Positions 4,880-57,875 of a stretch of 64,000 bases of DNA are shown in pieces. Under the pieces are notes generated by a model, which saw only the letters and a program-made list of their open reading frames with translations, searched no databases and was not told the DNA's origin. The stretch covers positions 3,554 to 67,553 of IMG/VR virus record IMGVR_UViG_2541047850_000005; one strand, given 5' to 3'. The DNA is from a virus (Duplodnaviria > Heunggongvirae > Uroviricota > Caudoviricetes). Made by a program: the position numbers and the translations under genes. Positions within the stretch are counted from its first letter, which is position 1. Each line of letters begins with the position of its first letter.

Positions 4880-5660
4880 TATACATACCTTGCTTCTTCG
4901 CTATACATGTTGTGTTTTCTTCGTGTTTTATCTGTCTCAACCTCTCTATAGGCGTTAATGCTTACTCCTTCCAGAACGTTCTATACGGCGACTATTTCTG
5001 TTGGTGAATTGGGTGTGTTGTTTTCTCTGTCGATGTATGTGGTTTCGTTCGTTTTGCGGTGGTTCTTCTATGGGGTGTTCTCGTCGTTTTGGTGATTGTT
5101 CTTCTCCGTGTATGGAGTAATGGCAGGTGGGCGATTCCTTTCGTTATTGTGTTTGAGTTGTTTGTCTGGAGTGTGTGAAGGGCTTTTGTAGTTATTCGTG
5201 TATTGGGTAATGGCGTTTCCCGTGATTGTTATGTTTCGTGTCTTTTGGGATTGAGAGAAACCTTGCGGTTACAGGCTTCGTTGGGGTTTCAGCGGTTCAG
5301 GTGTTTCTTCGCTGTTTGGGTAATGGCGTGTCGTGGGTATCGCGCGTATGAATGTTTTCGGATTGCCTGTGAAAGTTAGGTTGGTTATCCGGTAGCCTGG
5401 GAAGAAGAGGTGGGGTCTTTTCGGTAGCCTGCCATAAAGAGGTTGGTTGTTTTGGGTAATGGCATATGTGTTATTTGGTTGTTTTGTTATGCCTGAAAAT
5501 AAGTTGTTTATATGGTTGTGTAACGCAACGGGAGCGATTTTGAGCGTGTGTTTTTGTTGGTAGTGTGTTGAGTCGTCTGTGGTGAAAATTGGACGCTGTG
5601 GAGCTGTCTGCTGCGTAGGTTTACGGGTATAAGAAGTGATGTGTGAAAACGTCAATTTTT
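4880..5660. repeat. strand-asymmetric GT-rich repeat block (no credible ORF)
   Basis: Plus strand is almost only G and T over about 800 bp; at least 4 copies of GGGTAATGGC plus one GGAGTAATGGC, and repeated CGGTAGCCTG; ORFs called here are low-complexity. Confidence 0.5.
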
Positions 5661-5861
5661 TAGACCAAATCGGGAGAAAGCGTTGATGTTTCGTTGATCT
5701 GTTATTTAGTTGTTTTCTTATTGGTATAAACAACTGTAACCTATTGATATTTAAGGATGTGATTGCAGGCATGGAAGGGGAGTAGTGGCGATCAACGGAT
5801 TCTTATAGAAAAGAATCAAATTGTGACCGCCATTATCAACGGTTTGAATATGTTTGCAGAT

Positions 5862-6170
5862 TTACCAGTTCCAGCACTCAAGCCCTTCAACGACCGGCGC
5901 ACCACAATCAAAATGTACAGAGTCAAAGCCTACATCAAGTACTTTCTGAATGTTAGCAATCGCGCCTTCGGATATACCATATCGACGCAAGTCGTCTTTC
6001 CAGACATCATCCTGTAACCCGGCGTGGACAATACAACCGCCATCAATTTGTGAAACCCAATCCAGCTCATTGCTTGCGATCATGAATCGGCGAGCATCTT
6101 CCTCTGATGTATGAGATGAACTGATCAATGCCACCTGGTAGGCTTGGGTAATGTTCAACATTTCAACCAC
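5862..6170 (-). CDS. hypothetical protein (102 aa)
   Basis: ORF track; two motif-1 copies upstream at 6172-6194 and 6221-6240. Confidence 0.45.
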   Translation of the reverse strand: MVEMLNITQAYQVALISSSHTSEEDARRFMIASNELDWVSQIDGGCIVHAGLQDDVWKDDLRRYGISEGAIANIQKVLDVGFDSVHFDCGAPVVEGLECWNW

Positions 6171-6322
6171 TCCAAAACAAGTTGTTTTCTTATGTGGCTT
6201 ATTATCTCTAACAACAAAAGGCAGAAAACAAATTGTTTTAGGTACTGTGTAAATCAGAAGGGATTGTGTCTATATGAAAATGCCCGGCGTGTTGCCGGGC
6301 ATTGCGAAGAGAGGTTGCTTAA

Positions 6323-8356
6323 TTACTTAACCTGGTGACCAGGTTTAGCACCAGCATCCGGGCTTAACAGGAAGATATCTTTCCCACCAGGACCAGCAGC
6401 CATCACCATGCCTTCTGAGATACCGAAACGCATTTTACGCGGAGCCAGGTTAGCCACCATAATGGTGTGACGACCAATCAGTGCCTGTGGGTCTGGATAA
6501 GCAGAACGAATGCCGGAGAAGACATTACGCTTTTCCCCACCGAGATCCAGTGTCAGACGCAGCAGTTTGTCAGAGCCTTCAACAAACTCCGCGTTTTCAA
6601 TCAGCGCCACACGCAGGTCAACTTTGGCGAAGTCGTCAAAGGTGATGGTTTCCTGAATCGGGTCGTCAGCCAGTGGGCCAGTTACCGGTGCGGCTGTGGC
6701 TTTCACTTCTTCTTTGGATGCTTCCACCAGTGCTTCCACCTGTTTCATATCGATGCGGTTATACAGCGCCTTGAACGGATTCACTTTGTGGCCCAGCAGC
6801 GGTTGCTGGATACCATCCCAGGTCAGTTCTGTATTGAGGAATGCTTCTGCGCGCTCGGTCAGTTTCGGCAGTACCGGTTTCAGGTAAGTCATCAGCACGC
6901 GGAACAGGTTAATGCCCATAGAGCAAATCGCCTGCAGATCGGCATCGCGACCTTCCTGCTTCGCCACCACCCACGGAGCCTGTTCATCGACATAGCGGTT
7001 AGCCAGGTCAGCCAGTGCCATGATTTCACGGATAGCTTTACCAAATTCGCGGCTTTCCCATGCTTCGCCAATCACTTCAGCGGCATCAGTAAAGGTTTTG
7101 TACAGTTGCGGGTCAGCCAGTTCGCTTGCCAGCACGCCGTCAAAACGCTTGTTGATAAAGCCTGCATTACGGGAGGCCAGGTTAACCACTTTGTTCACGA
7201 TATCGGCATTCACTCGCTGAACGAAATCTTCCAGGTTGAGATCGATATCATCAATGCGCGAAGAGAGTTTCGCAGTGTAGTAGTAACGCAGGCTGTCGGC
7301 GTCAAAATGATTCAGCCAGGTGCTGGCTTTAATGAACGTGCCGCGAGACTTGGACATCTTCGCACCGTTCACCGTCACATAGCCATGAACAAACAGGTTG
7401 GTCGGCTTGCGGAAGTTGCTGCCTTCCAGCATGGCAGGCCAGAACAGGCTGTGGAAGTAAACGATATCTTTACCGATGAAGTGGTACAGCTCGGCGGTGG
7501 AGTCTTTCTTCCAGTATTCATCGAAGCTGGAGGTGTCGCCGCGTTTGTCGCACAGATTCTTGAAGGAACCCATGTAGCCAATCGGCGCGTCCAGCCAGAC
7601 GTAGAAATATTTGCCCGGCGCGTTCGGAATTTCAAAACCGAAATAAGGGGCGTCGCGGGAGATATCCCACTGTTGCAGGCCAGATTCAAACCACTCCTGC
7701 ATTTTATTTGCCACCTGCTCCTGCAACGCACCGCTGCGGGTCCATGCCTGCAGCATTTCGCTGAAAGAAGGCAGATCAAAGAAGAAGTGTTCGGAATCAC
7801 GCATTACCGGCGTAGCACCAGAAACTACCGATTTCGGCTCGATCAGTTCAGTCGGGCTGTAAGTCGCGCCGCAGACTTCACAGTTATCGCCGTATTGATC
7901 TGGCGCTTTACATTTAGGGCAGGTGCCTTTTACAAAACGGTCCGGCAGGAACATGCCTTTTTCCGGGTCGTATAACTGAGAGATGGTGCGGTTTTTAATA
8001 AAACCGTTCTCTTTCAGGCGAGTATAAATAAGCTCGGACAACTGACGGTTCTCTTCGCTGTGCGTCGAGTGATAGTTGTCATAGCTGATGTTAAAGCCTG
8101 CAAAATCAGTCTGGTGTTCCTGACTCATTTCGCCAATCATCTGTTCCGGTGTGATACCAAGCTGCTGTGCTTTCAGCATGATCGGTGTGCCGTGGGCATC
8201 GTCGGCACAGATGAAATTAACCTCGTGGCCGCGCATTCGCTGGTAACGAACCCAGACATCAGCCTGGATGTGCTCCAGCATATGGCCGAGGTGGATTGAG
8301 CCGTTAGCGTACGGCAGCGCGCACGTCACCAGAATTTTCTTCGCGACTTGGGTCAT
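6323..8356 (-). CDS. metG: methionine--tRNA ligase (MetG), E. coli-type
   Basis: 677 aa from [41 protein letters not shown]…; class I aaRS HIGH/KMSKS (KMSKS present), C-terminal tRNA-binding domain; from memory near-identical to E. coli MetG. The ORF track's 43-residue N-terminal extension (to 8485) is rejected. Confidence 0.95.
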
Positions 8357-37998: not shown

Positions 37999-38643
37999 TT
38001 ACAGCGCGTCAGTGGGCTTTTTACGCGCTGCGTTTATGCTTATGACGCCAGCTTTTGGACGTGGGTCAACAAGGTTAAGCTCTTCTTCACTGTGGTATTC
38101 GAGGTCGAACTCACGTTTTACATGTCTGATGTAGATTGCGGTGAGCAGGCTATCTTTGGTCAGAAAGTGTCCGTAGGATTTGCGGATCACTTCTTTTACC
38201 TTCTCGATTTTCTCACCACCCATACAGAGATGATTAAATCGGCTGTGTTTCCGCAACATTTCGTCTACTGGGCCTGAGTAAACCTTGTCCACTTTCCCAA
38301 AACGGATGATTTTCCCTGTGTCTGCGGATACGAGGCAAATCAGCTTGTCTGGTGATAAACGATCTCGCCACGTCACACCTGAACGGAGTGTGTTGAAGTA
38401 GGGGGCATCCAATCCGATGATCGGTTTACGAAATGCGAGCAATGGAACGTACCTGATGCAACTGTTTAAATGAAAATTCACACCAGCCTTATCAAGTTTT
38501 ATTCTGGTTTCGTAGATCGGGCACTTCGCCGCTATACCGCAGATGTCACAAAGCAACTTCTGCTTGTTCAGGTTGGAATTTGATTCGATAGTGTAGGAGC
38601 CGTCTTCAAGACGACGAACCCAGCGCGTGCGTTTTAGATCCAT
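37999..38643 (-). CDS. hypothetical protein with CxxC motifs (possible nuclease)
   Basis: ORF track, 214 aa; LCDICGIAAKCP cluster; no confident family. Confidence 0.4.
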   Translation of the reverse strand: MDLKRTRWVRRLEDGSYTIESNSNLNKQKLLCDICGIAAKCPIYETRIKLDKAGVNFHLNSCIRYVPLLAFRKPIIGLDAPYFNTLRSGVTWRDRLSPDKLICLVSADTGKIIRFGKVDKVYSGPVDEMLRKHSRFNHLCMGGEKIEKVKEVIRKSYGHFLTKDSLLTAIYIRHVKREFDLEYHSEEELNLVDPRPKAGVISINAARKKPTDAL

Positions 38644-38721
38644 ATGTCATTTTTCTGTGATTGTTAGCCGAGGCAACGATAACCCACCAGGTGCGCCGAA
38701 GGTAGTAAATGCCTGTTTTAA

Positions 38722-38943
38722 TTATTCACATATCCACAGGATAGATCCTAATAAAGAGATCCATAGATAGATCCTTGTATAGATCAAATAAGATCCCCGA
38801 TCGCTGTAAGCCGCGCCACGACTGGTCTGAAGCCATGTTCATGTATGCTGTCAGCGGTAATTGATAGTCTGTCAGCGGTTCACCGTATGCTGCCAACTGT
38901 TTTTGGTATTCTGTCAGCGGCAAATCAAGTATGCTGTCAGCGG
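38722..38943 (+). promoter_or_regulatory. plasmid-type replication origin (DnaA boxes + GATC cluster + iterons)
   Basis: Tandem DnaA boxes TTATTCACA/TATCCACA (38722-38738), six GATC sites within 38744-38803, then 4-5 copies of iteron TATGCTGTCAGCGGT (38844-38943) ending 22 bp before the rep start. Confidence 0.7.
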
Positions 38944-38964
38944 TTGAATGACAAAGGTGTCCAC

Positions 38965-40059
38965 ATGTCCACAAAAAATAAAAAAGGTAAAAATAACAAA
39001 GAAGTAGAAGATAACATCGACAACTTTGAAGAAGGTTCCCTTGAATTGTACACAGGGGAACTTGTCCCTAATAGCAACAATACAGTCCAACCAATTGCGT
39101 TGATGCGACTGGGGTTGTTCGTCCCCACGCTTAAGGGAACAAAATACAGTAAACGTAACAAGCCAAATGAGATCGATGCTTCAAAGGAGCTTGTCCAGCT
39201 CGAAGTAGCCCGTTCTGAAGGCTATTCCGATATCAAGATAACCGGTCCTCGTCTCGACATGGATCATGATTTCAAAACGTGGGTGGGCGTTGTGCGTTCG
39301 CTGGCAGAATACGGCGAACCTAATGGTCGTGTCGAGTTAAGCATCACGAAATTTGCGAAGTTTTGTGGCTATCCATCGTCACAGATCCGCAAAACACTCC
39401 GCGACCGGCTTACAAACAGTCTTTTGAAGATCATGCGTACAACTCTGTCTTTCCAGAGAACGTATGAAGAAAAGAACGTCGACGGCTCTAACAAGATCTC
39501 GCTTCTGATGGTGCACCTCATCAATAGCGTGGACTACAACGAGCAGAAAGATACGGTGGTGTTCTATGCAGAACCGAAGCTGGCCGAACTATATCGCTTT
39601 GACCATAAGGTTCTTTTGCAGTTAAAGGTTATCAATAAGCTACCACGCAAAGAAACAGCACAGGCTCTGTACACCTTCATCGAAAGTCTTCCAACCAAGC
39701 CTGCGCCGGTATCGCTTGCTCGATTGCGTGCGCGACTCAATTTGAGTAGCAGGAATGTCAGCTCGCAGAATCAGACTATACGTAACGGCTTAAAAGCTCT
39801 CCAAGATTTGGGCTATCTCGAATACAGCGAGATTAAGCGTGGGCGGTCGATCTATATCCAGATTCACAGCCGCAATCCAAAACTCAAAGTCGCACCGCCA
39901 AAACCTGAAGACATCGAACCCAAAAAACCAGATGAGAAAGCTGGGGAAATTGATGCCAAACAGAACATTATCAACAAGATAACCGAACTTTCGCAGAATT
40001 TGACGCCTGAAAATATCAAGATGATTGAGATCCTTTCCAATAGTCTCAAACTGCTTTGA
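38965..40059 (+). CDS. repA: iteron-binding replication initiator (RepA-like)
   Basis: Only large plus-strand gene in the element, flanked by iterons; start set at MSTKNKKGK because the ORF-track start at 38845 lies inside the iterons. Confidence 0.7.
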   Translation: MSTKNKKGKNNKEVEDNIDNFEEGSLELYTGELVPNSNNTVQPIALMRLGLFVPTLKGTKYSKRNKPNEIDASKELVQLEVARSEGYSDIKITGPRLDMDHDFKTWVGVVRSLAEYGEPNGRVELSITKFAKFCGYPSSQIRKTLRDRLTNSLLKIMRTTLSFQRTYEEKNVDGSNKISLLMVHLINSVDYNEQKDTVVFYAEPKLAELYRFDHKVLLQLKVINKLPRKETAQALYTFIESLPTKPAPVSLARLRARLNLSSRNVSSQNQTIRNGLKALQDLGYLEYSEIKRGRSIYIQIHSRNPKLKVAPPKPEDIEPKKPDEKAGEIDAKQNIINKITELSQNLTPENIKMIEILSNSLKLL

Positions 40060-40590
40060 TATGCTGTCAGCGGTGAAATGTATGCTATCAGCGGCTATTT
40101 TTCTGAAAAGTATGCTGTGAACGGTTAAAGATATGCTACCAGCGGTATAGTGAGATAAACGTATGCTGTGAGCGGTAAATCATCTATCACCACTCAATGC
40201 TCTTTTATACCTCCCCAGTGGTTACTAACCTCGAAGAGTGCATTCCATATAGGTTTGCGCTCACTAACATTCTATTCCCATTGCGCTGATTACTTGTAGT
40301 GAAAGGTATTTATTGCCTGCTGCTCCCTGATAGAACGTATGCTGTCAGCGGTGTTTTATTGAGGAATTTTTGTTTGGATATGCTATCAGCGGTAATTAAT
40401 GGCATATGTCAGACCTTCGTATGCTGCCAGCGGTAATTTTGTTCTGGTTATACCCATACCGGTACACATTATTCATGCAATGTCTTAAGTATGCTGTCAG
40501 CGGTAAAAAATCGAGTAAAGTATGCTGTGAGCGGTGAGATAGACTCTCGATATGCTATCAGCGGCAGTTGATTGTGTATGCTGTCAGCGG
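40060..40590 (+). repeat. downstream iteron array (incA-like control locus)
   Basis: 12 copies of TATGCT(G/A)(T/C)(C/G)A(G/A)CGG(T/C) in two clusters (5 + 7) with irregular 3-170 bp spacing; same unit as upstream of the rep gene. Confidence 0.75.
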
Positions 40591-40638
40591 TGACGACTAT
40601 GAAATATGACTGCGGAACGTGCCGCAGTCAGTTTGCAT

Positions 40639-40851
40639 TTAGTGTATTTTCTTCAACAGACCCCAAAGTGTTCCGGCTTTTGTAGTCAGTTTTCCTGTTT
40701 CTGGATCGTACATACGCCATTCACGCCGCTGGTGGACGATATACCCATCTTCACGTTCCAGACGCTCAAGAATGCCAGGCTGCTTGAAACCCTTAGCACG
40801 CCAGTATCCGCTTGTTTTCTCGATTTCCAGACCTGCCAGTGTTAATGCCAT
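40639..40851 (-). CDS. hypothetical protein (70 aa)
   Basis: ORF track. Confidence 0.35.
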   Translation of the reverse strand: MALTLAGLEIEKTSGYWRAKGFKQPGILERLEREDGYIVHQRREWRMYDPETGKLTTKAGTLWGLLKKIH

Positions 40852-41186
40852 TATCCAACCTCCTTGCAGTCATCGAAAAGGTAGCTTTGCTGAGAAGCGT
40901 GAACGCCATAGAAGCCCTTGTATTTGTTGTATACGAAGTGGTCTTCTCCGACGCCGGTTAATTTGCCATTACGGTTTGTGAGATATGGGGATGACAATAC
41001 TCGATCGTCACGCACAACATAGAACTGGTCGCCGCTGTCTACGACCATCGCTCCATATGGTGCTTTTATGACGTCGGTAAGAGCGCCATTCTTAACGTCG
41101 GCTACAGACATTTCACACTGATAAACAGTGGTGTCGGTCACAACGATCGAGGAAAGGAACAACAGAGCGAATGGGATGGCCTTCAT
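40851..41186 (-). CDS. hypothetical secreted protein (signal peptide)
   Basis: N-terminal MKAIPFALLFLSSIVVT signal-like sequence; ATGA-type overlap with a possible upstream 55-aa hydrophobic ORF (about 41187-41350). Confidence 0.4.
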   Translation of the reverse strand: MKAIPFALLFLSSIVVTDTTVYQCEMSVADVKNGALTDVIKAPYGAMVVDSGDQFYVVRDDRVLSSPYLTNRNGKLTGVGEDHFVYNKYKGFYGVHASQQSYLFDDCKEVG

Positions 41187-43377: not shown

Positions 43378-45717
43378 TTACTCTTCTACTGACTCGGTGG
43401 GGTTGTCTTTTGCTCTTCGGTCGTCGATTGCCTGCAAAGCCGCAATGATTTCAGCCAGTGGCTTCTCCCGATACATCTCGACGATCTGCGATTTGGTGTA
43501 TTTCTTGTCACCAATTTCAACTCGCCCGCTGGCGTTCTTTGGCAGGTATCCTTCTTCCAGCATGTACTCGACGAGCGATTCGATAACGTCGAGGCCACGA
43601 GTAGGATCGAAGTAGAATTTCCAGGTGCATTTGCCATACGGTGGTGCAACTTTGTTTTTGATGCATTCTGCGCCTACGTCCTGGCCGATCTTCTCTTTAC
43701 CATCCTTCATCACCGATGCACCAAGACGGATACGTACAGAAGCGTAGAACTTCGGTGAATCTCCACCTGGCGACGTAGTAGGGTCGCCAAACATTACACC
43801 GATTTTTGTGCGAACCTGATTCAAGAAGATGATGCAGGCGTTGTATTTGCGTGCCCACAAAGCCAGAGTAGGGAAGTTCGCACTTGTCGCACGAGCCAGT
43901 GCCGTATTGTCGTTCATGTTTAGCTGATCTTTGTCTTTGGCAGTGCCTTCAGCCATCTTTTCGAACTTCTCGGCTTTGGAGTTCGGAACCATAGACGCAA
44001 GTGAGTCAGCCACGATACAGATAGGTGCTGATTCAGGAATAAGCTCTTCATCACGTACCAATTTAAGAATTGTGCCGATCAACTCTACAGAGTCTTCGAA
44101 GGTATCAGGCTGCTTGTATACCCACTGACCGTCATCCTCATCTGCGTTCAGGCCATTGGCTACAGCCAGGCCAACGTCAAAACTGTTTTCATGATCGAGG
44201 AATACCGCCAGACCATCTTGTTTTTGAGCGGAGATCATCGCTGCTGTTGCAAGGAATGTGTTGTGGCTGATAATCCCGTTAGACCAGAAAGAGTGTGTTT
44301 CCGGCATCGCTACGTCGAACGTTGGTGCTTCACCTTCCTCAATAGCCACGACTTCGTCGTAGAATAAGTTAGAGCCAATTACCGCTGCCAGTTGTGCAAA
44401 CAGATGCTCGTTAAAACGATTCTTTCTGCCAATGAAGGAGACATAGATTTCTCGCAGTTTGTCTATTCCGACACGATCGCCGCGGCCAATAACGTGGTCT
44501 ACCAGAGCGTAGTCTTCACGGGTGGTCTTGGTGAGCGACTCGTAGAGTGATTTCACTAAGCCGCTGATGTGCGGAACATAGCCTGAGTAAGTGCGGTCAA
44601 AACCAATGTCCCGTTTGGTTGCCACTGATAAACGTGCCGGAGATTCGAAACCAATCGTTGACAGAAAAAGGTCGTAATTAGAGCCACTGAATGACAGCCG
44701 GTAATATGTATTTTCATAACCCGCGACGTGTTTTTCAGAGATAGTTGACGTAATCCCCAGATTCAGGAGCATGAGGCGAATTTGCTGTAGCAGCAGCCCA
44801 CTCGCGCTCACAACCTCAATGCAGCGACCACCATTGACGTGGCATTCCAGCTCAAAGTAGCCGCGAAGGAATGCAATTTGAGCCTCGCTATTGGCGCGAC
44901 GCACACTCAACGGAACCTGCTTGCCAGCAGCTTTCTCATACTCCAGACCATATTCTTTAAAAAGCAGCGAACGCACCTCTTTGCTAAACAGCACATGGTC
45001 TTCCGAGCCGTTATGTTTTCTCGTAACTGGCATCTTGTCTGATACCAGCGAAATGAGGCGGTAGTACTCATCCTTGATGAATGGATCTGTGTTAGAAAAA
45101 TGCACAGAATTTTCAGAGGCCACGTATCCGTCAGCAATTAAATAGCCCATCAGTTTTGCGATATTGGCATCCAAGTGCTGATCGCCGAATTGATGTGTGC
45201 CAACCATTGAAGGAATCGTGTCGCCTACACTGATTTTTTCAGCATACCGCCAGACGATATTGCCTAAGTCGTCAACCACACGAATTGGGTGACGGAACGT
45301 AGCCTCGATGTAACCCCCTGATGCCAGCTTAATGCGCTTGAATTTGCGACGGTTGTTCCATGTCAGGTGTGAGGTTTTCTCTATCACGCCATTTTCATTG
45401 ATGAGTCCAACGTTATGCTCTACATCGCGAGTAGTGCATGTTGCTTTGTGCCCCTCAATCTCAAACAGTTCTTTCACTGTTACCATTCCACGCTCCGTCA
45501 GCAGCATGGTGTCTGCGGTAACACATTTCCCCGCACTTGGAGGACCGAATACTTCGACGATACGACCACATGGGAAACCGCCATCGTAACGACCGGAAAT
45601 CGCTTTGTTTAACGGAGGAAAGCCTGTGTCAATCCAATGAGTTACTTTCTGAATTTCGTCGTTGCTACCGATTTTCTTTTTCAGAGCAAGTGCCAGTGCG
45701 GATTTTCCTTTTGCCAT
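43378..45717 (-). CDS. recA: RecA-family recombinase interrupted by an intein
   Basis: N-extein ends …VFGPPSAGK, C-extein resumes TFLATAAM…FLNQVRTKIGVMFGDPTTSPGG…FYASVRIRLG (collinear with bacterial RecA); 779 aa total, 357 aa after predicted splicing. Confidence 0.85.
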   Translation of the reverse strand: MAKGKSALALALKKKIGSNDEIQKVTHWIDTGFPPLNKAISGRYDGGFPCGRIVEVFGPPSAGKCVTADTMLLTERGMVTVKELFEIEGHKATCTTRDVEHNVGLINENGVIEKTSHLTWNNRRKFKRIKLASGGYIEATFRHPIRVVDDLGNIVWRYAEKISVGDTIPSMVGTHQFGDQHLDANIAKLMGYLIADGYVASENSVHFSNTDPFIKDEYYRLISLVSDKMPVTRKHNGSEDHVLFSKEVRSLLFKEYGLEYEKAAGKQVPLSVRRANSEAQIAFLRGYFELECHVNGGRCIEVVSASGLLLQQIRLMLLNLGITSTISEKHVAGYENTYYRLSFSGSNYDLFLSTIGFESPARLSVATKRDIGFDRTYSGYVPHISGLVKSLYESLTKTTREDYALVDHVIGRGDRVGIDKLREIYVSFIGRKNRFNEHLFAQLAAVIGSNLFYDEVVAIEEGEAPTFDVAMPETHSFWSNGIISHNTFLATAAMISAQKQDGLAVFLDHENSFDVGLAVANGLNADEDDGQWVYKQPDTFEDSVELIGTILKLVRDEELIPESAPICIVADSLASMVPNSKAEKFEKMAEGTAKDKDQLNMNDNTALARATSANFPTLALWARKYNACIIFLNQVRTKIGVMFGDPTTSPGGDSPKFYASVRIRLGASVMKDGKEKIGQDVGAECIKNKVAPPYGKCTWKFYFDPTRGLDVIESLVEYMLEEGYLPKNASGRVEIGDKKYTKSQIVEMYREKPLAEIIAALQAIDDRRAKDNPTESVEE
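44260..45525 (-). mobile_element. intein with LAGLIDADG homing endonuclease, inserted in the RecA P-loop
   Basis: Begins CVTADTMLL, contains ATFRHP (TxxH), LMGYLIADGYV and FLRGYFELECHV, ends GIISHN followed by Thr; about 422 aa. Confidence 0.85.
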
Positions 45718-56390: not shown

Positions 56391-56777
56391 ATGTCTGACA
56401 AAAACATTGAATTTATAGAAAGTCGCTATGCTGCTTTTATCGCAGGGCTGATTGAATCCTCACCTATGAGTCAGGCCCAAATAGCCAGACTTATTGGTTA
56501 TAAAAATGCCAACAACCTTTCTTTAATTAAAAGTGGTAAAATTCCTTTGCCTATCGATAAGGTTCGTCCGCTGGCGTTGGCGCTGGGTATTGAGCCAAGT
56601 CGTCTTATGATGATGGTGCTGGAAGAACGCCAACCTGAACTCGCAGCATTTTTATACAAAGAAGGCACCGCTCCTCTTAACGAGGACGAAAAACAGGTTC
56701 TTGCTGCATATAACGAGCGATTCGGTAAAGAGAAAGGCGCATCACAAAAGGTTGTTGAGGCCATAAAGTCTCTATGA
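56391..56777 (+). CDS. XRE-family helix-turn-helix transcriptional regulator
   Basis: …SQAQIARLIGYKNANNLSLIKSGK… HTH signature; 128 aa; convergent with the recombinase gene. Confidence 0.65.
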   Translation: MSDKNIEFIESRYAAFIAGLIESSPMSQAQIARLIGYKNANNLSLIKSGKIPLPIDKVRPLALALGIEPSRLMMMVLEERQPELAAFLYKEGTAPLNEDEKQVLAAYNERFGKEKGASQKVVEAIKSL

Positions 56778-57875
56778 AAAATTTAGACGAATAAGCTCTG
56801 TTGATAGACGATCTCCCTTGAATTTGTGGTCAATTTCGTCTAAATCCGGTTGCTCTACGATTGATGCGATGTACGTTGAGAAACTTTCTAAGGCGTCTCG
56901 CATCTCGTCCATATAATCGTGCCGGTCGTAGACCCGATCTATCCCCTCAAGACTGTGGTTCATGATTTTGCGTGATACCTCCTGGCTTATGCCTAATGCT
57001 GGGAAGTAACTACGCGCAGTACGACGCAAATCTCGGGGTGTAAATGGCGCAAGCTCCATCAGTTCTGGTCGTTCCAGAATACGACGTAATGCCTGGGCTA
57101 TTGCCACTTTAGACATAGGAAGGTCTTTCCCGATTTTTTTATTCGAAGGCACGAGCCACTGGCTGTCTTTACCGTATTCGAACAACTCTTCAATGCATGT
57201 GCGCATTAATGTGCTTAAAGGCAGCGAATGCTCACGTGCTGACTTGTTTCTCTTGCCTTGATTCCAAACTCCACGCTTAAGATTGAACTCACTTTTTTTA
57301 GCCCTCAGTACTTCGTCAGGTCGTCTTGCTGATACAAGACACAGCCTGGCCGCCCATTTTGTACCAGCGCACACATTGAAGTAGTCCCATATATTCCAGA
57401 ACACCCATACCTCTGCGTCGGTCAGCTTCCGCTCGCGAGGTGTGGGCTTTGCGCCACCGGCAACTTTGTTTAGTGACATATCGTTTAACGGTGACACGTC
57501 TATCATCCCCTGGAAGGCGCACCAGCTAAGGAACTGCTTCATCAGAGAGAAAACGCGGCGGCCCATAACAATTTTGCCATCCAGTATTAGTGGGTTGACC
57601 AGTTGGTTCACCATGAACCTATTAATGTCACTTACTTTTACATCGGCAATGTGCGGCAAAACATGTATCAAAATACAATGAACAGCGATCTCTGGCCGAC
57701 GTCTGGTTATCAGCAGAGATAAGCGAGTGAATAACATGAATGCGTCCGAGAATTTCATATCATTGCTAACCTGCGAGATCATAACGGCCTGCATTTGAGA
57801 TGCTCTTTCGAGATACTCAATCGCCTCTTTTGAGGTGTTCTCAGCAGCGCGTGCTCTGTCAAAGCTATTTTTCAT
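56772..57875 (-). CDS. tyrosine-type site-specific recombinase/integrase
   Basis: 367 aa; candidate catalytic Arg (ARRPDEV), RDLRRTARSYF and HSLEGIDRVYDRHDY fit the R…H-x-x-R…Y pattern. Confidence 0.75.
   Translation of the reverse strand: MKNSFDRARAAENTSKEAIEYLERASQMQAVMISQVSNDMKFSDAFMLFTRLSLLITRRRPEIAVHCILIHVLPHIADVKVSDINRFMVNQLVNPLILDGKIVMGRRVFSLMKQFLSWCAFQGMIDVSPLNDMSLNKVAGGAKPTPRERKLTDAEVWVFWNIWDYFNVCAGTKWAARLCLVSARRPDEVLRAKKSEFNLKRGVWNQGKRNKSAREHSLPLSTLMRTCIEELFEYGKDSQWLVPSNKKIGKDLPMSKVAIAQALRRILERPELMELAPFTPRDLRRTARSYFPALGISQEVSRKIMNHSLEGIDRVYDRHDYMDEMRDALESFSTYIASIVEQPDLDEIDHKFKGDRLSTELIRLNFS

Follow-up and report, generated by a model that had tools for sequence, protein, structure and literature searches.

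Identity and layout of the replicon

Is the phage-like stretch of DNA analysed here (64 kb, the window) part of an element that is kept as a plasmid, and if so, by what kind of replicon? The repeats and the initiator gene at 38722-40591, a span that opens with the first DnaA box, closes with the last iteron and agrees with the 38722-40590 given by the sequence-only reading, very probably make up the module (origin, initiator gene, copy-control repeats) by which an E. coli phage-plasmid of the SSU5 family replicates as a plasmid. From left to right the module holds tandem DnaA boxes, a GATC cluster, a GC-rich spacer, 5 iterons, rep and 12 further iterons (5 + 7). P1 has the same order of parts (oriR with DnaA boxes, Dam sites and incC; repA; incA), and the roles of RepA, incA and incC are given in the GenBank annotation of P1. 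All elements of the P1 layout that had been claimed for this segment were found, in P1 order, and several are homologous to their P1 counterparts rather than merely similar. In all likelihood the replicon therefore belongs to the P1 oriR / RepFIB-type iteron class, as the theta replicon of a plasmid-prophage (lysogenic) state, with the caveat that SSU5-family replicons and those of ordinary plasmids, rather than P1 itself, are its nearest relatives.

The origin

Tandem DnaA boxes on the + strand (38722..38738) form the left edge of the origin: TTATTCACA at 38722 and ATATCCACA at 38730, with one mismatch each to TTATCCACA. Single DnaA boxes are no more frequent in the window than expected by chance; the tandem pair (boxes with ≤1 mismatch) is the sole one in 64 kb and, as had been proposed for the region upstream of rep, corresponds to a P1 feature: it aligns with the DnaA-binding site annotated in P1 oriR and, in Klebsiella pJN2-26, with TTATCCAC-TTATCCAC. 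Across the compared relatives the boxes show 0 base substitutions, with a 1-base indel in two relatives.

Six GATC (Dam) sites in AGATCC-type repeats follow (38744..38802; 37% GC, AT-rich), matching the six in 60 bp counted earlier. They occupy 59 bp and are the densest such cluster of the window, where the background is 4.1 GATC per kb and no other 65-bp stretch holds more than two. The cluster aligns with the annotated Dam sites of P1 oriR, which number five instead of six. Among relatives, 1/64 sites of the GATC region is variable and lies outside every GATC, the GATC sites themselves being invariant. By analogy with P1, this region is presumed to be the site of strand opening and of SeqA sequestration. 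A GC-rich spacer, GCCGCGCCACGACTGG (38804..38843; GC 0.575), separates the GATC repeats from the iterons and is conserved in alignments with P1, Cronobacter JK004 and Klebsiella pJN2-26. As a whole, the left half of the origin (tandem DnaA boxes, AGATCC repeats and spacer GCCGCGCCACGnCTGG) can be aligned with P1 oriR, annotated in K02380 and AF234172, column by column, and the DnaA-box, GATC and GC-spacer DNA of the two replicons is homologous.

A search of the whole window with the iteron consensus TATGCTGTCAGCGGT (≤3 mismatches) returned 20 matches, where 1.5 were expected and none of 100 shuffles gave more than 5; 17 of the 20 fall in 38844-40591, every one on the + strand. Five of these, settling the earlier estimate of four to five copies upstream of rep, are the origin iterons (38844..38944, equivalent to P1 incC), which start at 38844, 38865, 38886, 38907 and 38930 with spacings of 21, 21, 21 and 23 bp, and are presumed from the P1 model to be Rep binding sites. 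The weakest copy (38886, 3 mismatches) stays precisely in the 21-bp register and is also kept in a Klebsiella relative. P1 incC likewise has five origin iterons, 21-22 bp apart, but the P1 iteron is GATGTGTGCTGGAGGGAAA and that of the window TATGCTGTCAGCGGT. To the right of the iterons, two DnaA-box-like 9-mers on the + strand, GTGTCCACA and ATGTCCACA (38957..38973), overlap the ribosome-binding site and ATG of rep. Each has 2 mismatches and would be a weak match alone; they sit where P1 has its right-hand DnaA boxes, which are stronger, and align with GTATCCACA in Klebsiella as well as with the P1 right-hand region.

The initiator gene rep

On the + strand at 38965..40059, rep encodes a 364-aa protein of the Rep_3 family (PF01051), predicted, from its Pfam match and homology to P1 RepA, to be a winged-helix iteron initiator. 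The match to Pfam Rep3_N has an E-value of 3.9e-9 and scores 37.5 bits (curated cut-off 22.4 bits), and tblastn against P1 RepA gives 43.5% identity at E 2e-64 and 46.4% at E 8e-78 over ~278 residues. Identity is 47.9% to SSU5 RepA and 85% to Rep of Klebsiella phage-plasmids, and a multiple alignment retains 96 invariant columns. The suggested kinship with iteron-type initiators is thus borne out for the protein, a homologue of both P1 RepA (43-46%) and SSU5 RepA; the iteron sequences, which had been put forward for the same comparison, differ from those of P1 and SSU5. Compared with P1 RepA, the window Rep is longer by ~20 residues at the N-terminus and by a 55-aa tail at the C-terminus, and it contains an 8-residue insertion. 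Its second winged-helix domain (WH2, Rep3_C) was not detected directly, but was detected in the aligned P1 and SSU5 homologues. Searches of PDB sequences with Rep alone and with a 5-sequence profile gave no meaningful match, and a single-sequence AlphaFold model was unusable (mean pLDDT 40.4), so that a two-winged-helix fold is predicted from the Pfam match and P1 homology only.

The start at 38965 has an AAGGTG ribosome-binding site 5 nt upstream and agrees with the PhiR41_1 annotation, and many assemblies are rotated to begin at the same ATG; the RefSeq start at 38845 (404 aa) falls within iteron 1. A standard consensus scan detected no + strand promoter for rep. A relaxed scan gave a single candidate, TTGATA-19 bp-TATGCT at 38861-38891, which spans iterons 2-3, and the rep promoter probably lies among the origin iterons.

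The downstream iteron array

Twelve further iterons lie downstream of rep in two clusters, as the sequence-only reading had them; the clusters hold 5 and 7 copies, and every copy has the same orientation. Cluster 1 (40060..40176, + strand, equivalent to P1 incA) begins at the base directly after the rep stop codon, with starts at 40060, 40081, 40111, 40132 and 40162 (spacing 21, 30, 21, 30 bp). An iteron-free spacer of 160 bp with no recognisable feature (40177..40337) leads to cluster 2 (40338..40591, + strand), whose seven copies start at 40338, 40379, 40420, 40490, 40521, 40551 and 40577 (spacing 41, 41, 70, 31, 30, 26 bp). P1 incA also begins at the repA stop codon and has spacings of ~30 and ~41 bp, but consists of 9 control iterons (3 direct + 6 inverted) where the window has 12, all direct and in two clusters. 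Mixed orientations are found in JK004 and SSU5 as well as in P1, so the pairing geometry may differ in the all-direct array. An Rfam scan of 38400-40900 at E ≤1 returned no RNA family match, and hence no sign of antisense-RNA control.

The downstream iterons are under purifying selection. Their 15-mers have 5/180 variable sites, compared with 43/352 in the DNA between them (Fisher p = 1.8e-4), making them about four times less variable than the intervening DNA across relatives. The iteron-free spacer evolves fast (22/161 sites variable among 9 relatives) and is shorter and unrelated in Klebsiella, where the iteron sequence is kept despite a Rep only 85% identical and diverged spacers. Array length is also conserved, with 12 iterons in 120/124 plasmid records, while the number of control iterons differs by lineage (4, 8, 9 or 12). 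PhiR41_1 has 9 control iterons, lacking 87 bp that correspond to three cluster 2 iterons (an iteron-to-iteron deletion); the window has 12, like most plasmids of the IncFIB(H89-PhagePlasmid) type.

That these repeats serve as a centromere-like site for a distant ParA, or as spare Rep sites with no regulatory effect, is very improbable. Such roles would suit arrays that stand apart from the origin and vary in copy number between lineages, and for the partition genes the analysis identified no centromere. The repeats, however, have the same sequence as the origin iterons and would accordingly be sites for Rep rather than for another DNA-binding protein; they resemble P1 incA both in lying at the rep stop codon and in being spaced 21/30/41 bp apart, and neither their purifying selection nor their conserved number fits dispensable sites. 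The evidence favors a control array of the incA kind.

GenBank record MZ779062 (Klebsiella phage pJN2-26) labels two homologous 20-bp repeats attR and attL, which would make the direct repeats flanking rep attachment sites or other recombination scars. We rejected this identity, whose probability we consider negligible: the repeats number 17 instead of 2 and surround an initiator gene, phased at helical-repeat spacings, in an architecture homologous to P1 oriR/incA, and the element was never found integrated (0 chromosomal places).

Distribution and closest relatives

Near-identical public records comprise Escherichia phage PhiR41_1, p09EL50 and ~120 circular plasmids, mostly of ~110 kb. The replicon is present in 120/5,426 complete E. 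coli genomes; of the 185 matches across the 5,426 genomes, all are plasmid-borne and 0 chromosomal; the proposal that the surrounding phage-like genes belong to an element kept as a plasmid agrees with this exclusively plasmid location. Identity is 99.3% over 2.1 kb to p09EL50, with which the window is colinear over 58 kb, and 100% over the aligned parts to PhiR41_1. A 110,844-bp plasmid of strain 47258 is 99.1% identical and, since size and strain name match, was taken as p47258-4, which has been typed IncFIB(H89-PhagePlasmid) (PMC12838234). This is the sole replicon type reported for these plasmids (MOB-suite rep_cluster_488; IncFIB(H89-PhagePlasmid)) (PMC12838234). Phage-plasmids of the pECOH89 / p09EL50 type, to which PhiR41_1 and CMS-2020a also belong, carry essentially the same replicon sequence as the window, and pECOH89 RepA has been described as identical to p09EL50 RepA (PMC3999498). 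The replicon is thus already catalogued as IncFIB(H89-PhagePlasmid), real but ordinary, and common in E. coli. Public records annotate the Rep CDS alone, usually with a start inside iteron 1, and without any origin features.

The replicon of SSU5, pHCM2 and pLF82 (Cyrano), typed IncFIB(pLF82-PhagePlasmid), occupies the same genomic slot in a syntenic phage backbone. It shares the upstream ASCH-like gene, the DnaA boxes and the GATC repeats, with 77% DNA identity up to 38803, and the SSU5 Rep (47.9% identical) ends in the same kind of C-terminal tail. In contrast, the iterons, rep and the control iterons together (~38.83-40.64 kb) form a cassette of different specificity, in which the SSU5 iterons are AACCACTGTAGAGAGTA-like and arranged in two upstream clusters with a control array of mixed orientation. 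The cassette boundary falls exactly where the half of the origin that serves host factors (DnaA boxes, GATC repeats) gives way to the iterons. At the other end, a GC-rich hairpin with a 9-bp stem, terminator-like on both strands (40607..40630), forms the right border of the replicon module and faces a convergent 70-aa ORF at 40639-40851; SSU5 homology resumes at 40641. These comparisons show Rep and the iterons behaving as an exchangeable specificity cassette on a shared phage backbone.

The replicon of an ordinary 34.7-kb plasmid, pCFSAN004176P_01, has 81% DNA identity to that of the window and shares the DnaA tandem, GATC repeats, spacer, iteron sequence and five origin iterons. It differs in having only 4 downstream iterons and in the long ParA (~400 aa), ParB and ccdAB that adjoin it; no phage genes were present within the 11.4-kb stretch examined.

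Partition genes

No P1-type parABS comes after the control array in the window, where small ORFs on the opposite strand take that place. The sequence-only reading had seen no partition genes in the window, and tblastn within it with P1 ParA/ParB, the family's own ParA and the 117-aa partner of the latter as queries found nothing. The family ParA is a 222-aa ATPase encoded outside the window, ~31 kb from the replicon, which in the near-identical PhiR41_1 lies ~7 kb past the position of the window's right end. Its identity is 99.5% between Cyrano and p09EL50 and 100% between p09EL50 and PhiR41_1. The small 117-aa ORF beside it has no Pfam match and, read by eye, appears ParG-like.

Proposed replication control, modeled on P1

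Taken together, the differences from P1 are minor, and the function of the module is deduced from homology. Each step of the mechanism below, including Rep binding, the dependence on DnaA, Dam and SeqA, and copy control by the downstream array, is extrapolated from P1; the general control logic of iteron replicons (monomer binding, chaperones, titration, handcuffing, Dam/SeqA) has been reviewed (PMC6090056). Host DnaA would bind the tandem boxes at 38722-38738, and Rep monomers, probably released from dimers by DnaK/DnaJ/GrpE, would fill the five origin iterons at 38844-38944, two helical turns apart. DnaA and Rep would then jointly open the AT-rich GATC region (38744-38802), which would need Dam methylation to fire and be sequestered by SeqA when hemimethylated. 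Transcription of rep probably starts from a promoter inside the origin iterons, a position that would make rep autorepressed. The 12 iterons at 40060-40591 would act as a copy-control and incompatibility locus equivalent to P1 incA, titrating Rep and pairing with the origin iterons (‘handcuffing’) to keep copy number low. Segregation may be ensured by the ParA ATPase ~31 kb away together with the neighboring 117-aa ORF.

The Rep/iteron origin could instead be mainly a lytic-cycle origin that works with the element's own replisome, leaving plasmid upkeep to something else. Relatives encode dnaE, a toprim-domain (primase-like) protein, a DnaB-like helicase, ligase and RNase H, and the ~55-aa C-terminal tail shared by SSU5-family Reps, which is absent in P1 RepA, could contact phage proteins. 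We nevertheless judge a mainly lytic role very unlikely. The module is laid out as a theta replicon under copy control and of low copy number, and a negative-control array of 12 iterons would hardly suit unchecked lytic replication; a replicon 81% identical to this one maintains a 34.7-kb plasmid of the ordinary, non-phage kind, and no other plasmid-type replicon has been typed on these elements. P1 itself replicates from oriR as a plasmid and from a distinct origin, oriL, in the lytic cycle. A plasmid-maintenance replicon remains the preferred reading.

Significance for SSU5-family phage-plasmids

It is conceivable, though unlikely, that the replicon represents an SSU5-family variant of P1-type control. 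The all-direct, two-cluster array of 12 iterons would then set a copy-number regime unlike that of P1 incA, the 55-aa Rep tail would couple the initiator to the phage replisome or to the lysis-lysogeny switch, and the cassette boundary could allow related phage-plasmids to exchange incompatibility specificity and to share a cell.

The practical value of the analysis lies in annotation. It places the 64-kb window in an extrachromosomal phage-plasmid of the SSU5 family, members of which spread blaCTX-M-15 and other cargo, and gives base-level origin coordinates where public records leave features unannotated or mislabelled (Rep made to start within an iteron; iterons named attL/attR). Cassette exchange and the number of control iterons would provide testable handles on copy number and compatibility. 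Nothing here alters how iteron replicons are currently understood.

Identity and distribution of the replicon

The replicon at 38722-40591 belongs to the P1/RepFIB class of plasmid replicons; it is that of an SSU5-family phage-plasmid and is already known, catalogued and typed. A 2.1-kb replicon segment is 100% identical over the aligned parts to Escherichia phage PhiR41_1, 99% identical to Escherichia phage CMS-2020a and 99.3% identical to p09EL50 of E. coli O104:H4. It is matched in 207 PLSDB plasmids (at least 80% of the segment in 120), almost all non-mobilizable; the matches listed come from Escherichia and Shigella, and most are about 110 kb, with a few of 34-76 kb. The window is colinear with p09EL50 across 58 kb, and the backbone of that plasmid carries SSU5-like structural and replication genes. 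According to the pECOH89 genome announcement (PMC3999498), the RepA protein of that plasmid is identical to p09EL50 RepA and 48% identical to pLF82 RepA. Plasmids of 110 kb of the p09EL50 kind are typed IncFIB(H89-PhagePlasmid), including p47258-4 (110,844 bp; PMC12838234), and strain 47258 has a plasmid of 110,844 bp on which our search matched the whole replicon at 99.1%. The sequence-only reading had taken a P1-type iteron replicon within a phage-like module to imply maintenance as a plasmid, and the genomic distribution supports this: the replicon occurs in 120 of 5,426 complete E. coli genomes, and the 185 places matched are without exception plasmid-borne, with none on a chromosome.

Origin features and iteron arrays

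The predicted tandem DnaA boxes lie at 38722 (TTATTCACA) and 38730 (ATATCCACA), each with one mismatch to TTATCCACA; lone boxes are no more frequent than expected by chance, and the window contains no other tandem pair. Two weaker DnaA-box-like 9-mers, GTGTCCACA and ATGTCCACA (38957-38973), overlap the start of rep. Six GATC sites fall within 38744-38802, in a repeat region that is AT-rich (37% GC), while 65-bp stretches elsewhere in the 64 kb hold at most two each. A search allowing up to 3 mismatches returned 20 matches to the iteron, a 15-mer repeat, in the 64-kb window (1.5 expected; maximum of 5 in 100 shuffles), of which 17 lie within 38844-40591, every one on the + strand, with the consensus (G/A)TATGCT(G/A)(T/C)(C/G)A(G/A)CGG(T/C). 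Five origin iterons (38844, 38865, 38886, 38907 and 38930; spacing 21, 21, 21 and 23 bp) precede rep. The control iterons follow it in two clusters separated by 160 bp, five at 40060-40176 (spacing 21, 30, 21 and 30 bp) and seven at 40338-40591 (spacing 41, 41, 70, 31, 30 and 26 bp). The DnaA tandem, the GATC cluster and the 12 downstream iterons in two clusters are thus as first read from the sequence; the upstream copies, put at 4-5 in that reading, number five.

The rep gene and its product

Our ORF list has a 404-aa rep frame from 38845, and RefSeq/PGAP likewise places the Rep CDS start (404 aa, ‘RepB family’) at an ATG inside iteron 1, so that the CDS takes in 38845-38964 and runs through the origin iterons. 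The start is likely the ATG at 38965, giving a product of 364 aa: an AAGGTG ribosome-binding site lies 5 nt upstream, rep is annotated from the equivalent ATG in PhiR41_1, many assemblies are rotated so that this ATG holds their first base, and the shorter product also agrees with the P1 alignment. A standard promoter scan found none for rep, and the sole find of a relaxed scan was a candidate, TTGATA-19 bp-TATGCT, across iterons 2-3. Rfam gave no RNA family match.

Rep matches the WH1 domain of iteron initiators (Pfam Rep3_N, PF01051) at 3.9e-9 (37.5 bits; curated cut-off 22.4), and both Rep3_N and Rep3_C are matched by the P1 and SSU5 RepA proteins. In tblastn searches of phage genomes, Rep is 43.5% identical to P1 and P7 RepA (residues 32-309, E 2e-64), 47.9% to SSU5 and Cyrano RepA and 85-87% to the proteins of Klebsiella phage-plasmids; reciprocally, P1 RepA finds the window at 46.4% identity over 278 residues (E 8e-78). 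A five-way alignment shows a C-terminal tail of roughly 55 aa (a Pro/Glu-rich linker, then helices) common to the window, Klebsiella and SSU5 proteins, which P1 and JK004 RepA lack, and an 8-residue insertion in the window and Klebsiella proteins but not in SSU5. Sequence searches found no relative of solved structure, and a single-sequence AlphaFold model was unusable (pLDDT 40).

Homology to the P1 origin

As annotated in GenBank (K02380 and AF234172), P1 has an 18-bp tandem DnaA site, five Dam sites, five incC iterons, repA and nine incA iterons, in that order; the repA -35 and -10 elements lie between incC iterons, and the incA iterons begin at the repA stop codon. An alignment of 38700-38970 to P1, Klebsiella phage pJN2-26 and Cronobacter phage JK004 is conserved column by column in the tandem DnaA boxes, in the GGATAGATCC/AGATCC repeats and in the GC-rich spacer GCCGCGCCACGnCTGG, and beyond the spacer the five iterons of all four are in the same register. 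The P1 iteron itself (GATGTGTGCTGGAGGGAAA) differs from that of the window element. Homology of the origin to P1 oriR goes beyond a shared layout and, together with the RepA homology, supports the P1-type assignment.

P1, JK004, pJN2-26, PhiR41_1 and the window each have five origin iterons, and SSU5 has two upstream clusters of a different iteron. The control iterons number nine in P1 (3 direct, 6 inverted), about eight in JK004 (mixed orientation), eight in pJN2-26 (all direct, with an iteron identical to the window's), twelve in the window (all direct) and nine in PhiR41_1; those of SSU5 are of mixed orientation. The ordinary 34.7-kb E. coli plasmid pCFSAN004176P_01 (NZ_CP012492) has an 81% identical replicon (5000-6470) with the same iteron in 5 + 4 copies, adjoined by a long ParA/ParB pair and ccdAB, with an IS3 element between par and the origin. 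This suggests that the replicon module circulates between plasmids and phage-plasmids. The attR/attL labels in pJN2-26 (MZ779062, 2753-2772 and 4023-4042) are really two replication iterons flanking rep, almost certainly mis-annotated by a prophage-finding tool.

Conservation and array length

Across nine relatives aligned over the replicon, 5 of 180 sites are variable in the downstream iteron 15-mers and 43 of 352 in the DNA between them (Fisher p = 1.8e-4). The DnaA boxes have no variable bases, with a 1-base indel inside them in two of the nine, and the GATC region has one variable site, outside every GATC. The 601-bp control region is at unchanged full length in 120 of 124 plasmid records. 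PhiR41_1 matches the rest of the aligned replicon segment at 100% identity but lacks 87 bp (40490-40576), the exact distance between the identical iterons 14 and 17, and therefore has three fewer control iterons; the missing stretch was deleted cleanly from one of these iterons to the other.

Cassette exchange and partition

DNA similarity to SSU5 (77%) spans the DnaA boxes and GATC repeats as well as an ASCH-like gene upstream of them, ends at 38803 and restarts at 40641, just beyond a terminator-like hairpin (40607-40630); similarity to Cyrano ends at 38831. Both breaks fall after the GATC repeats and before the first iteron. ParA is identical (100%) in p09EL50 and PhiR41_1 (H89-type) and 99.5% identical to that of Cyrano (pLF82-type), whereas Rep identity across the two types is only about 48%. 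Because homology breaks there and Rep diverges so much more than ParA, the iterons, rep and control iterons form an exchanged specificity module; the comparison shows swapping of replicon specificity on a shared phage-plasmid backbone, of which the host-factor half of the origin (DnaA boxes and GATC repeats) is part.

No partition genes had been seen in the window, and tblastn agreed, with no match to P1 ParA or ParB, to the ParA-type ATPase of the family itself (222 aa; Pfam MipZ, AAA_31 and CbiA) or to its 117-aa neighbour. PhiR41_1 encodes this ParA at 73.1-73.8 kb, some 31 kb away from rep and about 7 kb past the window's right end, so its absence only reflects where the window happens to end.

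Other genes on the element

A RecA-like recombinase gene (43378-45717, - strand; Pfam RecA, Intein_splicing and LAGLIDADG_3) encodes 779 aa because of an inserted intein with a LAGLIDADG homing endonuclease (about 44250-45526), which is missing from the 357-aa protein of p09EL50. The stretch 58006-64000, unmatched in p09EL50, is chaperone-usher fimbrial cargo of the phage-plasmid, with an AraC-type regulator (58408-59190), a PapC-like usher (59247-61727) and a PapD-like chaperone (61763-62452). In p09EL50, host-like metG (methionyl-tRNA synthetase) and apbC are annotated inside the phage-plasmid (28005-31296), corresponding roughly to window 6.3-9.6 kb at about 96% match. A tyrosine recombinase (Phage_integrase domain; 56772-57875, - strand) is encoded on an element never found integrated; it may be a multimer resolvase in the role of P1 Cre. 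Relatives encode an N6-adenine methyltransferase.

Proposed mechanism

By homology with P1, each step of the following mechanism probably applies; P1 roles were taken from GenBank annotation and the general logic of iteron control from a review (PMC6090056). DnaA would bind the left DnaA boxes and Rep monomers the five origin iterons, jointly opening the AT-rich, Dam-methylated GATC repeats. After firing, SeqA would sequester the hemimethylated origin. Rep would repress its own promoter within the iterons, this promoter being the weakest point of the scheme, and the twelve downstream iterons would titrate Rep and handcuff the origin, keeping copy number low.

What public records of this replicon lack is annotation of its origin features. 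The points of note, though small, are a cassette boundary inside the origin and a number and orientation of control iterons that are lineage-specific.
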